From assembly GCA_019056805.1 (NCBI GenBank), contig DXJG01000002.1:166907-198906 (forward strand): a stretch of DNA of 32,000 bases. The letters are read 5' to 3'. This document shows, piece after piece, positions 3,583 through 13,042 of this stretch. Under the pieces are notes generated by a model. The model worked only from the letters and a program-made list of their open reading frames with translations. It was not told where the DNA came from and searched no databases. Origin of the DNA: Candidatus Baldrarchaeota archaeon. GTDB lineage: Archaea; Asgardarchaeota; Baldrarchaeia; Baldrarchaeales; DXJG01. How positions within the stretch are numbered: the stretch's first letter is position 1; the number at the start of each line of letters is the position of its first letter. Both the position numbers and the translations under genes were made by a program.

Positions 3583-4125
3583 TTGAAAACAGAAGAAACA
3601 GAAGAAGAAATTAAAACATTAGCAGACCTGAAAAAATACCTAGAAGATGAATTAGAAAAAAGAAGAAAAGAAATACAACAATTAGAAAAATTTCTTATAG
3701 TTGTTAATACCATGTTAGCGAAACATAGCTTTAAACCCGCAGTAACACTTATAGAAGAGAAAAAAGAACCAACAAAAAAAGAACTAACCTTAAAATCAAA
3801 AAGTGGGAAAACCCTAGCTTACATGAAAATATATCCAACAACAATTAAAATAACAATTCCTGAAAGTTTGAAGGTAAGTCCAAAATCTCCACCTTTTAAA
3901 TCCTTCTTTATAGGGCAAATATTGAGAAAAATGCAGCAAGAAGATCTTGAACTTGTAAAAGAAAGAAAAATACCTAGCGGGAAAGCCTTAGAATATAGAA
4001 TAGAAATTTCAGACGGAAATGTCAAGGAAATTGTTATCAAAAATTATAGAGATGAGGAAAGGTTGAAGGAAATAGAAAGAACAATAAAATGGACACTAGA
4101 AACTATACTTGAGAAAACTAAGTAG
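3583..4125 (+). CDS. hypothetical protein with N-terminal coiled coil
   Basis: 180-aa ORF with a TTG start behind GAGGGA, an E/K-rich heptad N-terminus and codon style typical of this window. Confidence 0.7.
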   Translation: MKTEETEEEIKTLADLKKYLEDELEKRRKEIQQLEKFLIVVNTMLAKHSFKPAVTLIEEKKEPTKKELTLKSKSGKTLAYMKIYPTTIKITIPESLKVSPKSPPFKSFFIGQILRKMQQEDLELVKERKIPSGKALEYRIEISDGNVKEIVIKNYRDEERLKEIERTIKWTLETILEKTK

Positions 4126-7693: not shown

Positions 7694-7764
7694 GGTGGCC
7701 GTGAATATGACCTTTGCACTTGAATTTAAGGACTGTGGGGGTGGTATTGGTGGCCACGGCTACC
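7694..7764 (+). promoter_or_regulatory. long G.U-rich hairpin overlapping the SD and likely start codon of tmcA/Nat10
   Basis: GGTGGCCGTG (7694-7703) pairs with CACGGCTACC (7755-7764). Inner arms 7704-7718 and 7734-7748 pair with several G.U and one mismatch. Confidence 0.45.
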
Positions 7765-10170
7765 GACGAAGGAAAAGTTGAAATTAAAACGTGTTCTGAA
7801 AAATTTTTAAACGGTCTTGAGAAAATATCTGAACTTGCTATTAAAACTGCGATACAAAATAACCATAGAAGAATGTTTGTTTTTTGTGGAAGCGACATAA
7901 GAAGAATTGATGCCGCTTATAAGGTTTTTTCAAAATTTATTGAAATTAAAGGCAACATGCAAGTAAGAGTACTTTACGTTGCAGTGGAGGTTTCTTCTGG
8001 AAAAGATAAAGAATTATATACGGAGTTTAAATCAAGAATAGAGAAGAATTTCAAGGACGTTGAAATTAATGGAATCAGTTTTAAAGATACAGATAACGTT
8101 ATGGGTCAAACTTTTGACGTGTTAGTTTTAGATTTAAATAGAGACCTAAACCCCAACGATCTTGGTCGATTAATTGAAACCGTTAGCGGTGGAGGCATTA
8201 TAATAGCAATAACTCCTCCAATGGATAAATGGTTAGTTTTGAAAACACGATTTCACAAGAAACTTATAACCCCCCCTTGGACGATTGACGATATTCCCGG
8301 TAGGTTTAACAAGAGATTCATAAGGAAACTAAAGGAGCATAAGGGAATTTACATTTTCGACGTAGACGAAGAAATTGCTTTAAAAGTTATTAAGGAAGAA
8401 GTTTCTGATAAAGGTAGGATAACCATAAGTATTCCTGAAGAACATCTGCTACCAAGAGAAGTTTATGAATTAGCTTTAACCCAAGGACAAGTTAGAGCTT
8501 TAAAAGTAATGGAAAGGTTCTTAGTAAGAAAGGAGAAAAAACCAGCTATTGTCATGATCGCCGATAGGGGTCGAGGAAAGAGCGCTGTCGTTGGGATAGC
8601 TATAGCCGCGATAGCACATGAGTTAAAGAAAATTTTTTCCTCAGGTAAAGTTTCTGTTCTTGTAACTTCTCCACAAATAGGAAATGTCAGGACACTTTTC
8701 GAGTTTGCCGTCAGGACGCTTAAAAGATTAGGTTATTCACCACAAGTAAAGAAGCGAGACTACGATATTGAGGAAGTAAGGGCTTCAGGTATCAAAATTT
8801 TTTATGAACCTCCATGGGAGGCAATTGAACGAAAAGCTGACATCACTGCCGTAGATGAAGCTGCTGGCATACCAATTCCCTTACTTTTCCGATTCTTAAA
8901 AAGAGCTAAAAGAATTATTTATTCTTCCACTATTCATGGATATGAAGGAGCTGGCAGAGGTTTCTCTATAAGATTTCTGGGCGGATTAAGAGAAATTAAA
9001 AATATAGAGGTTAACATGGTTGAATTAGAAGAACCCATCCGATATAGTGACGGAGATCCCATTGAACAATGGCTCTATGATGCTCTTCTTCTTGACGCAG
9101 AACCAGCTCAACTTTCAGTAAGAGATATTAAACAAATCAAAAATATGCAAGTCGTATTTAAGAAAGCCGATTTAGACAAGTGGTTTATTAACGGTAATGA
9201 GAAAAAACTGAGACAATTTATTGGCATTTATGTATATGCCCACTATAGAAACCAACCAAAAGATGTAGCTCTTTTAGCAGATGCACCTCATCATGAAGCC
9301 TTCATGCTTGAGACTAAAAACGGGAAAATTGTTAACGCTATCCAAGTAGCCTTGGAAGGAGGATTACCTGACGAAGTCATAAAGGAGATTTATAGCGGAT
9401 TTGAACCAGATGGAAACATAATACCAACAATTGTGGAGAAACATTTCCGAGATACTGAATTTCCAAAACTCAAAGGATATAGAATTGTTAGAATCGCAAC
9501 ACATCCGCAAGTTATGAGCATGGGACTAGGAAGTGAAGGGTTGTCAAAACTTTGCCAAGAAGCCGAAAAGAGAGGACTAGATTGGGTTGGAGCTGGTTTC
9601 GGCGCAACACCAGAACTCCTCCGCTTCTGGATAAAAAATGGTTTTATTCCAGTGCATGTTAGCCCAAGGAGAAATCCCATTAGCGGAGAATATTCTACAA
9701 TAGTAATAAAACCTCTTTCTAAGAAAGCAAAAGAAATTACTAAGTTTATCTTTAAAGAATTTAAAATGAAGTTTGTTGAGTGGTTAAGAGACATACATTA
9801 CGACATGGAACCTGAAATAGCCATGTACATCCTTAATTCAAAATTAGAAGATATATCAGAAAGACTTTACGAGTTAAAGCTAACAGAAAGTCAACAAAAG
9901 CGACTCGAAGCATACGTTAAAGGAGTATTATACTATGAAGTTGTCTGTGATGTAATTCGTGAATTGGTAAAAATGTACTTTTTAGATCATACTTCAGAGA
10001 GAACAAAACTTTCTGAGGGAAAAACATTGTTGCTTATCCTAAAGAGTTTACAAGCAAGAAGCTGGAAACAAACTCTGGATGTTATTAATTTAGAGCCTGC
10101 AGCAGCATATACAATGTTTAGAGCGGCAATAAAGAAACTATACAAAGCTTACATCGGGAAAATAGACTAA
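7750..10170 (+). CDS. tmcA: tRNA/rRNA cytidine acetyltransferase TmcA / Nat10 (Kre33)
   Basis: HRR N-terminus, LGRLIETVSGGG, Walker A ADRGRGKS, DEAA, GYEGAGRGF, YRNQPKD and GNAT RIATHP..MSMGLGS. Start is uncertain (in-frame TTG 7714, GTG 7735/7741/7750). Confidence 0.95.
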   Translation: MATATDEGKVEIKTCSEKFLNGLEKISELAIKTAIQNNHRRMFVFCGSDIRRIDAAYKVFSKFIEIKGNMQVRVLYVAVEVSSGKDKELYTEFKSRIEKNFKDVEINGISFKDTDNVMGQTFDVLVLDLNRDLNPNDLGRLIETVSGGGIIIAITPPMDKWLVLKTRFHKKLITPPWTIDDIPGRFNKRFIRKLKEHKGIYIFDVDEEIALKVIKEEVSDKGRITISIPEEHLLPREVYELALTQGQVRALKVMERFLVRKEKKPAIVMIADRGRGKSAVVGIAIAAIAHELKKIFSSGKVSVLVTSPQIGNVRTLFEFAVRTLKRLGYSPQVKKRDYDIEEVRASGIKIFYEPPWEAIERKADITAVDEAAGIPIPLLFRFLKRAKRIIYSSTIHGYEGAGRGFSIRFLGGLREIKNIEVNMVELEEPIRYSDGDPIEQWLYDALLLDAEPAQLSVRDIKQIKNMQVVFKKADLDKWFINGNEKKLRQFIGIYVYAHYRNQPKDVALLADAPHHEAFMLETKNGKIVNAIQVALEGGLPDEVIKEIYSGFEPDGNIIPTIVEKHFRDTEFPKLKGYRIVRIATHPQVMSMGLGSEGLSKLCQEAEKRGLDWVGAGFGATPELLRFWIKNGFIPVHVSPRRNPISGEYSTIVIKPLSKKAKEITKFIFKEFKMKFVEWLRDIHYDMEPEIAMYILNSKLEDISERLYELKLTESQQKRLEAYVKGVLYYEVVCDVIRELVKMYFLDHTSERTKLSEGKTLLLILKSLQARSWKQTLDVINLEPAAAYTMFRAAIKKLYKAYIGKID

Positions 10171-10175
10171 TCAAG

Positions 10176-10802
10176 GTGATATCGTTGCCTAAAAAATTTA
10201 GAAAACATATATTTTTCGACGGAAAATATGCCGATAAAATTCTAAAAGGTGAGAAAACATCAACAATTAGGGTGGGAAAATATTCGATAAAAAAGGGACG
10301 AAGTTTTTATGTCCACGCTCGAGGACACGTACTCGGTAAAGCAGTTGTAACAGATGTTCAAATAAAAAAATTAAATGAACTTACTGATAAAGATGCAAAA
10401 AGAGACGGTTTTAAAAACAAAAAAGAACTTTTAAAAGCTTTAAAAAAACATTACGGAAAACTCGATAAGGATACCCCTGTAACAATCATAGAGTTCAAAA
10501 TACAAGATAAATTTAAGGAAGAAGTAACTTCCTCTGATTTTGCATATGGTGGGTATAAAGCGACAGAGATAGCAAAACTTGCACTTACTCATAATGTTAA
10601 CTTGTCCGAAAAAGAAAGAGAAATACTCAAAACACTTCTAAATACTGGTAGTATTAGAAAAACCGCGAGACAAATTGGTAATTTAAACAAACGATTTATG
10701 ATCAGAAAAATCTTAAAGAAAGTCTTCAGCAACCTAGTTAAAGAGGGAATTATATCACCAAAAATTAAAAGCTACTACGAAGAAAATAATAAAGAAACTT
10801 AA
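10176..10802 (+). CDS. ASCH-domain protein with C-terminal HTH
   Basis: ASCH signature ILKGEKTSTIR (GxKxxTxR), LTDKDAKRDGF, and an HTH-like tail LSEKEREIL....GSIRKTARQIG. Confidence 0.85.
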   Translation: MISLPKKFRKHIFFDGKYADKILKGEKTSTIRVGKYSIKKGRSFYVHARGHVLGKAVVTDVQIKKLNELTDKDAKRDGFKNKKELLKALKKHYGKLDKDTPVTIIEFKIQDKFKEEVTSSDFAYGGYKATEIAKLALTHNVNLSEKEREILKTLLNTGSIRKTARQIGNLNKRFMIRKILKKVFSNLVKEGIISPKIKSYYEENNKET

Positions 10803-11730: not shown

Positions 11731-11817
11731 AATCAATAACGCGTAATTTAAACCATTAATTACTTAGAAGTTTAATTTCCAAAATAACTGTTAGCTGACC
11801 TAACGGTGAATGAGGTG

Positions 11818-12255
11818 ATGTTATTGACTGAAAAGTTCATTCCAATTGTTAAATCGCCATCTTGGAAACACGGCACAAGAAAAGGGAAAGGATTTAGCAT
11901 CGGTGAGATTAAAGCAGCCGAGATAGATATTAGTATGGCAGTTAAACTCGGTATACCCATTGATAAAAGAAGAAAAACCGTACATGAAGAAAATGTTGAA
12001 ACCTTAAAAAACTACTACCGCGAATTTGCAAAAGAACTAGGGACGACTTCACTTCCTAAAGTTGACAAAAAAATAATAGAAGAGTTAACTAAAGTTCCTG
12101 GTATAAACATTCATGTTGCACGAATACTTGCCAAAAAAGCTTCAATATCTTCCATAGAAGACCTTATAAACAGTGATATCAATGAATTATCAAAGAAAAC
12201 AGGTTATTCGAAAAACAGAATCAAAAAATGGATTTCAGCTGCAAAAGGGGAATAA
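11818..12255 (+). CDS. rpl13e: 50S ribosomal protein eL13 with C-terminal helix-hairpin-helix extension
   Basis: Motifs RKGKGFSIGEIKAA and GIPIDKRRKTVHEENV. Start could be 11806, 11818 or 11824. Confidence 0.88.
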   Translation: MLLTEKFIPIVKSPSWKHGTRKGKGFSIGEIKAAEIDISMAVKLGIPIDKRRKTVHEENVETLKNYYREFAKELGTTSLPKVDKKIIEELTKVPGINIHVARILAKKASISSIEDLINSDINELSKKTGYSKNRIKKWISAAKGE

Positions 12256-12269
12256 TAATTAAAATAATG

Positions 12270-12420
12270 TGGCACACCTTTTAGCTTCTTTTCATCTCAT
12301 ATTTTCAAAGAAGCCTTCCAGGTGTGCCTCATCGGTGTCCCCCGCTGCGGAGACACGGTATCATCGTATCCGCCGAAGGAAACTCAACCGGCACTGTGAC
12401 TGCGGGTTTTGTCCTCTGCT
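12270..12420 (-). ncRNA. unidentified structured ncRNA candidate
   Basis: 59% GC over 12311-12420 (65/110) in an AT-rich genome. Hairpins at 12335-12356 and 12271-12328 have G.U pairs only on the minus strand. TATA-like sequence lies upstream (about 12432-12450). Confidence 0.6.
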
Positions 12421-12592
12421 AAATATTTACATTTATATAGCTTTAAATAAGCTTTACTAAAACTGGAAAACTATATCATTAGAATTTATCTCTAAAAGTT
12501 AGATGTGAGACACAATATAATTTATAATAAAATGCTAGATATCTCAAGCATGAAGATTATGATGCTTGCATATACCTTTAAGGGGGCTTTTT

Positions 12593-13042
12593 ATGAGTTA
12601 TATCAAGTCGGTGGTTATTGGGACAATTAGTATTTCAATAATATCCTTGTTTGCCATTTTAATGGAAATACTCCCACCTTACGTACTGTATCATTTCCAA
12701 AACGAGTCAACAGGTAATTTTCTTCTTAGTTTGTTTAACTTTGTACTTTTTTATCAAGATGAAGGTGTTTTTCCATGGATACTATGGTATGTTGGTGGAG
12801 TAATAACTGGTTTAGTTGCACGAGGAGCAGTTAAAGGAACATTATCGGCATTTTCGGTGCCTATTATCTTGGTATTTCTCTACTGGATATTACTTATATT
12901 CCCGTTTATTAGTACTCCCACCTCCATCGATATATGGGAAATAGTGGATGAACTTTATTATCTTACGAATATTGCAGTAAAATTTGCATTAATATCTGCG
13001 ATCGGAGGCGTTCTAGGAGGGGCAGCAACGAGGCAAAGGTAG
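12593..13042 (+). CDS. 4-TM membrane protein of unknown function
   Basis: Four hydrophobic segments, GGVITGLVARG and C-terminal IGGVLGG. ATG 12593 sits behind AGGGGG. Confidence 0.7.
   Translation: MSYIKSVVIGTISISIISLFAILMEILPPYVLYHFQNESTGNFLLSLFNFVLFYQDEGVFPWILWYVGGVITGLVARGAVKGTLSAFSVPIILVFLYWILLIFPFISTPTSIDIWEIVDELYYLTNIAVKFALISAIGGVLGGAATRQR

Follow-up and report, generated by a model that had tools for sequence, protein, structure and literature searches.

A GC-rich island in a Candidatus Baldrarchaeota genome (assembly GCA_019056805.1, here G000) raises the question of what kind of gene, if any, lies in the gap between a ribosomal protein gene and its hypothetical neighbor. Within the window, the 32,000-nt stretch of contig DXJG01000002.1 that was analysed, the G+C content reaches 59.1% over positions 12311-12420 and 50% over 12264-12423, compared with 34.7% for the window as a whole. 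A sequence-only reading had noted the island and taken it for an unidentified multi-hairpin RNA, separately transcribed from the minus strand and perhaps acting as a modification guide, with a speculative link to the nearby Nat10 gene; as checks it had named an Rfam scan, a search for homologues and covariation, and an antisense search against rRNA and tRNA. The results described below indicate that the locus very probably encodes, on its minus strand, an archaeal box H/ACA sRNA with two hairpins.

Genomic setting of the locus

The predicted transcript covers positions 12265-12421 of the minus strand (approximately 157 nt, the ends being approximate). Its 3′ end, an ACA followed by UUAUUUU, is separated by 10-13 nt from the stop codon of a convergent plus-strand gene (11806-12255), and the other flank is occupied by a hypothetical gene (12566-13042). 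The convergent gene, L13e-HhH, encodes ribosomal protein L13e with a fused C-terminal helix-hairpin-helix domain (HHH_5). Six relatives of it were found, the nearest among public genomes being in a Thorarchaeota MAG, where a similar full-length match has 37% identity over residues 13-146. The plus-strand gene for Nat10/TmcA (7714-10170) is separated from the sRNA by 2 kb and three genes, and an ASCH-domain gene and a Memo-like gene are found on the plus strand between Nat10/TmcA and L13e-HhH. The ASCH-domain gene (10176-10802, plus strand, E = 9.5e-20) begins 6 nt past the Nat10/TmcA stop codon. The E. coli ASCH protein YqfB is an N4-acetylcytidine amidohydrolase and, if this assignment of YqfB is right, the two adjacent genes could represent an ac4C writer beside a possible ac4C-binding or -removing protein.

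A 171-nt minus-strand stretch across the island folds with a free energy of -59.8 kcal/mol (z = -4.23 versus dinucleotide shuffles, of which 1 in 200 was as good). The minimum-energy fold includes the two elements that the earlier reading had described, the long 3′ hairpin (GGCACACCU/AGGUGUGCC with a 9-bp inner stem), which is indeed followed by a U-rich tract, and an 8-bp hairpin at 12335-12356.

Conservation and helix support

A BLAST search of 61 related genomes recovered the full length of the sRNA from just two of them, both of the same genus, G001 (89%) and G002 (84%), and a metagenome scan, in which an 18-nt degenerate pattern was followed by a covariance-model filter, added six contigs with full-length covariance-model matches of 169-196 bits. 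The conserved block, at 84-100% identity across G001, G002 and the six metagenome contigs, has sharp bounds and diverged flanks. The full-length covariance model found no match in G004, which represents the only other family of the class, and a pattern that combines the hairpin-1 guide with CUCC-N(9-11)-ACA occurred across 400 genomes of the phylum no more often than a reversed-pattern control; the one suggestive match, in G352, falls in coding-like sequence and lacks the lower stem. The sRNA was likewise not found in the assembly of G003, a genome of the same genus that is the source of the target 23S rRNA discussed below. As known so far, the sRNA is confined to one genus-level group.

The helices were assessed on seven distinct sequences from close relatives, in a model-fitted alignment that leans towards the given structure. 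In this alignment standard pairs are present in 96.9% of the cells, compared with 45-63% when the partner columns are slid by 1-3 positions. Two pairs change on both sides and eight more on one side via G.U, and none is lost except for one conserved U.U. In hairpin 2, the uppermost pair of the lower stem appears among homologues as U-A, U.G and C-G, and the upper-stem pair beside the G.A pairs of the same hairpin changes from U-A to C-G in five of the seven. The stems of hairpin 1 are retained through exchanges of C-G to U.G, G-C to G.U and U-A to U.G. Since the sequences come from close relatives, these helix-preserving substitutions are supportive rather than statistically strong. The comparison with homologues thus bears out a conserved RNA in G001, G002 and the six contigs with its helices kept. 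The G.A elements of the kink motifs are invariant in both hairpins, with the first base of the GAU bulge in hairpin 1 as the only exception.

Putative promoter, strand and predicted transcript ends

A BRE-like AAAG and a TATA box, TTATTTAAA, are present at 12441-12455 of the minus strand, about 25 nt upstream of the start of the conserved block, where a TATA-like tract had been pointed out before. The element, AAAG-N-TTATT(A/T)AAA, is kept in all nine homologous loci, and the sequence between it and the sRNA has diverged; judged by this pattern it would act as an archaeal promoter. The 5′ leader carries an AGAGG (12413-12417, minus strand) that is unchanged in the seven distinct homologues, with variable leader bases adjoining it. 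At the other end, the UUAUUUU after the second ACA box (12261-12267, minus strand) is a putative terminator; the T-run occurs only in G000 and in the homologue L108.

The G.U and U.G pairs found in the homologues become A.C mismatches when read on the plus strand, and the minus strand is therefore the functional one, as had been concluded earlier from the wobble pairs of this locus. Moreover, the homologues differ by 1- and 2-nt indels, which excludes a conserved reading frame, including the 63-codon plus-strand ORF at 12269-12460. With its own TATA element and the architecture described below, the locus fits the earlier suggestion of a separately transcribed multi-hairpin RNA of the modification-guide type, insofar as transcription can be read from sequence.

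Architecture of the two hairpins

Hairpin 1 opens with a lower stem in which CCCGC (12402-12406; all sRNA coordinates are on the minus strand) pairs with GCGGG (12341-12345). The stem has 5 bp in G000 and is extended to 6-7 bp in the relatives by added C-G and U.G pairs, with all alignment cells paired. It leads into an internal pocket with the 5′ strand AGUCACAGUG and the 3′ strand UGUCUCCGCA (12346-12355). Within these, the predicted 5′ guide is AGUCACAGU (12393-12401), of which GUCACAGU is invariant across all homologues, and the predicted 3′ guide is CUCC (12349-12352). Both pocket strands are near-invariant, the lone change being an A/C difference at the outermost base of the 5′ guide. 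The upper part of the hairpin (12356-12392), as read from the sequence, holds an upper stem of four Watson-Crick pairs, CGGU/ACCG, with an additional U.U pair. Between this stem and the guide duplexes stand UGU in the 3′ strand and GC in the 5′ strand, 2-3 bases that are unpaired or pair weakly. A predicted K-turn follows, composed of tandem G.A/A.G pairs (12384-12385 with 12361-12362), the 3-nt bulge GAU (12363-12365), the first base of which is A in G002 and the homologue L093, and a distal stem GUUUCC/GGAUAC (12378-12383 with 12366-12371) of five pairs and one conserved U.U, closed by the loop UUCGGC. The lower stem is followed in G000 by two unpaired G and the ACA box 1 (12336-12338), an internal, ANA/H-like box that is invariant across all homologues; in L096 the base that precedes it changes from G to A with the box intact.

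A 7-nt linker, CCGAUGA (12329-12335), follows the ACA box 1 and leads to hairpin 2, and its GAUGA is invariant in all seven homologues. A third K-turn, made from the AGAGG of the leader and the GAUGA of the linker, was considered and not adopted: by inspection, its distal stem would have just 2 bp and clash with the lower stem of hairpin 2, and the pairing is mismatched in L101 and L096.

In hairpin 2, a 9-bp lower stem forms between GGCACACCU (12320-12328) and AGGUGUGCC (12271-12279). The pocket consists of GGAAGG (12314-12319) and the 3′ partner strand CUAAA (12280-12284), and the upper stem CUUCUUU/AAAGAAG with its K-loop (12285-12313) matches the architecture of the Rfam HgcG consensus. 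The G.A/A.G pairs of the K-loop are formed across the apical loop by GA 12305-12306 and GA 12292-12293, with GAU at 12294-12296. The 3′-terminal ACA box 2 (12268-12270) comes directly after the lower stem and is invariant across all homologues. The stems, the K-loop and the ACA of hairpin 2 are kept among relatives while its pocket drifts, the 5′ strand reading GGAAGG, GGAAAG, GAAAAG or GAACG and the 3′ strand CUAAA, CUGAG or CUGAA.

Two elements of the earlier description take on a different meaning in this fold. The 8-bp hairpin at 12335-12356 belongs to the minimum-energy structure, but it is probably not the working fold: it has no covariation and is broken by a C.A mismatch in L096, at a base that is unpaired in the H/ACA fold, and forming it would occupy the ACA box 1 and the 3′ half of the pocket of hairpin 1. 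Similarly, three GAUGA motifs are present as reported (12361-12365, 12329-12333 and 12292-12296) with no CUGA anywhere, but their likeness to box C does not hold, as two of them are the bulged strands of the kink motifs.

Assignment to the box H/ACA class

Archaeal H/ACA guides contain one to three hairpins, in which the upper stem bears a K-turn with sheared G.A pairs and the lower stem is followed by an ACA (PMC11077068, PMC2377435). The same parts are recognizable here. Both hairpins are built of a lower stem, an upper stem and a large internal loop as the pocket, for which the class has strands of about 5-11 nt, the upper stem of each is capped, at the sequence level, by tandem G.A pairs of a K-turn or K-loop, and an ACA trinucleotide stands 3′ of both lower stems. 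In addition, hairpin 1 has a predicted bipartite target in which an unpaired UN is bracketed by the guide strands, with the U 14 nt from the ACA. By comparison, the terminal motifs of a box C/D RNA, RUGAUGA near the 5′ end and CUGA near the 3′ end, are absent as a pair.

At gathering thresholds Rfam reported nothing in the whole window, and ARAGORN detected no tRNA in it. A permissive cmscan search of 401 nt gave a single meaningful match, to HgcG/Pab40 (RF00064), at 21.1 bits (E = 5.8e-4), which is far below the 77-bit gathering threshold of the family, and for that reason the H/ACA assignment rests on architecture. The Rfam check named at the outset thus yielded no strong match. In the sub-threshold alignment, hairpin 2 corresponds column by column to the last HgcG/Pab40 motif, including the GA...GAUGA and the terminal ACA. 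With this match and the full set of archaeal box H/ACA features, the RNA no longer needs to be called unidentified. It appears to be a previously uncatalogued sRNA gene that falls below every Rfam threshold and was missed by standard pipelines.

The spacing of the hairpins deserves a closer look. In Pyrococcus, an upper stem of 5-6 bp from the pocket to the kink was found to be functional (PMC2377435). The kink-to-pocket path in hairpin 1 is longer than this, and the upper stem of hairpin 2 has 7-8 bp, compared with 7 bp in the Rfam HgcG consensus (Pab40 motif 3) and 7-8 bp in a Pab40-like hairpin elsewhere in G000. The distance from the ACA to the target U has been given as 14-15 nt (PMC2377435) or 14-16 nt (PMC11077068). 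A hairpin can fit the 14-15 nt ACA ruler even when its kink-to-pocket path exceeds that of the Pyrococcus rule, which would help programs that search uncultured archaea for H/ACA genes.

The genome also encodes the proteins expected to act with such an RNA, namely Cbf5 (477 bits versus TIGR00425), Nop10 (79.5 bits), Gar1 (46 bits) and two L7Ae-family genes. What the sequences show directly is the conservation, the substitutions that keep the helices, the layout of the motifs, the complementarity to rRNA and these four kinds of protein genes; we infer that the RNA is transcribed, bound by the proteins and active in forming pseudouridine. As in the archaeal H/ACA RNPs that have been characterised, L7Ae would bind the kink motifs, a K-turn in hairpin 1 and a K-loop in hairpin 2, and Cbf5, Nop10 and Gar1 would dock at the two lower stems and the ACA boxes that follow them. 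Pairing of a substrate RNA with the two pocket strands would leave a U-N dinucleotide unpaired between the duplexes, placing its U in the active site of Cbf5 for conversion to pseudouridine.

Helix 69 as the predicted target of hairpin 1

The target search used a 23S rRNA of 3632 nt from the same-genus genome G003, so that guide and target come from different genomes, and sites were scanned in the form [3′-strand pairing]-U-N-[5′-strand pairing]. The best site for the hairpin-1 pocket is U2147, in the context GGAG-UA-ACUGUGACU, with four pairs to CUCC and nine Watson-Crick pairs to AGUCACAGU, all nine positions being complementary. The site scores 33, the second-ranked site 21, and of 2000 shuffled guide pairs one attains 33; the pocket register was fixed after the match had been seen. 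The first paired base of the 3′ guide, C12352, is 14 nt from the ACA box 1 and within the published window. From a hand alignment to the E. coli 23S rRNA, we take U2147 to be the equivalent of position 1911 in helix 69, and GGAG and ACUGUGACU presumably correspond to 1907-1910 and 1913-1921, respectively. Helix 69 is a universal cluster of pseudouridines. The 9-mer of hairpin 1 fits the helix-69 variant of the genus, CUGUG, better than the CUAUG of G004 or the CUAUA of G005. Registers that place U1915 or U1917 in the pocket leave most of the 5′ guide unpaired when paired by hand and were rejected.

The substrate of hairpin 1 would thus most likely be helix 69 of 23S rRNA, bound through CUCC/GGAG and AGUCACAGU/ACUGUGACU with the 1911-equivalent U left unpaired. 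The 3′ guide duplex is short, with 4 bp, three of them G-C, and published work gives 3′ guide pairing more weight for activity than 5′ pairing. The UGU and GC next to the upper stem could add C-G and G.U pairs around a bulged U.

Psi1911, Psi1915 and Psi1917 have been described as the three conserved pseudouridines of helix 69, and the human 28S equivalent of 1911, position 3727, is modified (PMC2875026). In Haloferax, the equivalents of 1915 and 1917 are made by sR-h45, a guide with two hairpins, and the 1911 equivalent (U1936) is unmodified (PMC7075261). Motif 3 of Pab40 makes one conserved pseudouridine of helix 69, 2016, in Pyrococcus (PMC2377435). A non-systematic literature search found no archaeal guide for the 1911 equivalent; pseudouridine at that position is reported for E. 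coli and human. Taken together, a tentative proposal, which we hold to be possible without leaning towards it, is that hairpin 1 is a lineage-specific guide for the 1911 equivalent, that together with a Pab40-like guide it provides a full three-pseudouridine helix 69 that is all RNA-guided, and that hairpin 2 perhaps has a non-rRNA substrate. If the proposal is true, an Asgard lineage has a three-pseudouridine helix 69 as found in bacteria and humans. The helix-69 prediction for hairpin 1, if it holds, would already extend RNA guidance in this lineage to a conserved decoding-center site that is reported as unmodified in Haloferax, which would bear on the build-up of a eukaryote-like snoRNA modification pattern.

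Target search for hairpin 2

For hairpin 2, upper stems of 5-8 bp and an unpaired UN or UNN were allowed, and the guide variants of three homologues were used jointly. No convincing site was obtained in the same-genus 23S rRNA, the rRNAs of G004 and G005, the whole genome, the tRNAs or the GC-rich islands; the 16S rRNA of the genus is unassembled. The best candidate in 23S rRNA, the U2496 equivalent (the site of Psi2865 in yeast), reaches no more than 4 + 3 pairs and does not agree with the pocket variants of L108, L096 and G002. A site on contig C6 that fits CUUUUC, the consensus target derived from the pocket variants, is antisense to the 5′ end of 23S rRNA and was rejected as well. The antisense search has thus led from hairpin 1 to helix 69 of the same genus, but gave no target for hairpin 2. 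This hairpin may serve an RNA that is absent from the assemblies, such as 16S rRNA, or a variable RNA, or it may be an orphan module for RNP assembly.

Alternative explanations

The drifting, targetless pocket of hairpin 2 and the atypical kink-to-pocket distance would also suit an L7Ae-binding K-turn RNA that is not a pseudouridylation guide, but rather a chaperone of rRNA folding or a protein scaffold. The two clear kink motifs and the third invariant GAUGA in the linker are in line with such a role, and a precedent exists in Sulfolobus sR666, a K-turn hairpin without a pocket that co-purifies with Cbf5. However, in both hairpins described here the internal loop stays open and the lower stem is directly followed by an ACA, and the near-invariant pocket of hairpin 1 fits helix 69 at the canonical distance from the ACA, so a purely structural role appears improbable and the guide function is preferred.

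Two further readings are much harder to reconcile with the data. An adaptor or guide for Nat10/TmcA in ac4C formation, which had been proposed by analogy with U13 and snR45, would draw on the proximity of the genes (~2 kb) and on the GAUGA motifs. U13 and snR4/snR45 are eukaryotic box C/D snoRNAs that assist NAT10/Kre33 in 18S ac4C, and they share with the present RNA a small size, kink-turn GA motifs and antisense pairing to rRNA. Nevertheless, they carry terminal boxes C and D and bracket a cytidine, whereas here the box C/D architecture is absent, with no CUGA box D, and it is a uridine that the one clear antisense element brackets; two of the GAUGA motifs form kink strands inside the H/ACA fold and the third lies in the linker, and the sRNA is convergent with the gene row of Nat10, three genes away. 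Such a role is therefore very unlikely, and the identification as H/ACA removes the speculative link to Nat10. The other reading denies a separate RNA gene and sees in the island a structured 3′ UTR or terminator of L13e-HhH, or the 63-codon ORF listed at the site. The 10-13 nt that separate the sRNA from the L13e stop codon would agree with it, but the locus has a conserved minus-strand TATA element of its own, the wobble pairs, the ACA boxes and the kink motifs can be read on the minus strand only, and the indels break the frame, which leaves this explanation with hardly any credibility. A two-hairpin H/ACA guide accounts best for these features.

Comparison with characterised H/ACA sRNAs

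Haloferax sR-h45 is likewise a two-hairpin archaeal H/ACA RNA with sheared G.A pairs and an ANA/ACA box in each hairpin, one of which is aimed at helix 69. In sR-h45, however, it is the 3′ hairpin that serves helix 69, at 1915 and 1917 via an unpaired UNUN, whereas the RNA described here would use its 5′ hairpin for the 1911 equivalent, and the linker is 56 nt long in sR-h45 and 7 nt here; the likeness is one of architecture. The single-hairpin sRNAs Pab91, Pf9 and Sulfolobus sR115/sR435 consist of the same module, with the ACA 14-16 nt from the target U (PMC2377435, PMC11077068). They differ from the present RNA in that two modules are arranged here in tandem, hairpin 1 has a short lower stem (5-7 bp), and the kink-to-pocket path comprises 7-8 positions rather than 5-6 bp.

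Pab40/Pf7/Pho40/Afu4 (RF00064, HgcG) is a three-motif H/ACA sRNA of Thermococcales and Archaeoglobus (PMC2377435). Hairpin 2 matches its motif 3 in stems, pocket, K-loop and ACA, but Pab40 has three hairpins rather than two, the match reaches 21 bits against the 77-bit threshold, and complementarity to helix 69 belongs to hairpin 1 and not to the motif-3-aligned hairpin 2. Since a better Pab40-like locus, at 33 bits, is located on contig C6, the sRNA is an additional guide and not the Pab40 orthologue.

This second, Pab40/HgcG-like H/ACA locus lies at C6:189838-190097 of G000 on the minus strand (L163, approximately 1500-1760); its 33 bits are also below the threshold, and the locus is present in G001, G003 and G004 as well. 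By hand pairing, the pocket of its last hairpin (GUUACU, GCUGAGAGAG) is complementary to the flanks of the helix-69 loop (AGUAAC, CUCUCUUA), leaving UGUGA, the 1915-1919 equivalents, unpaired and 15 nt from the ACA. The arrangement resembles the UNUN pocket of Haloferax sR-h45.

Observations on the ribosomal RNA genes

The Rfam LSU search reported no rRNA match in G000, despite a 5′ fragment of 23S rRNA at the edge of contig C6. There, on the minus strand of C6:1-540, the first ~345 nt of 23S rRNA reach the contig edge, and a tRNA-Ala-like sequence, identified by eye and unreported by ARAGORN, is located about 120 nt upstream of the fragment. AT-rich non-rRNA sequence follows, and 16S rRNA is apparently not linked upstream. 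In G003, the 23S rRNA of locus L033 (contig C116, minus strand) has 3632 nt compared with the 2987 positions of the model. Approximately 10 nt past helix 69, CUCUCUUAA is not continued by the GGUAGCC of the conserved sequence; instead, an inserted sequence starts with CGGGAGAGUC, a complement of the helix-69 3′ strand. The departure looks like an rRNA intron or insertion adjoining the predicted target.
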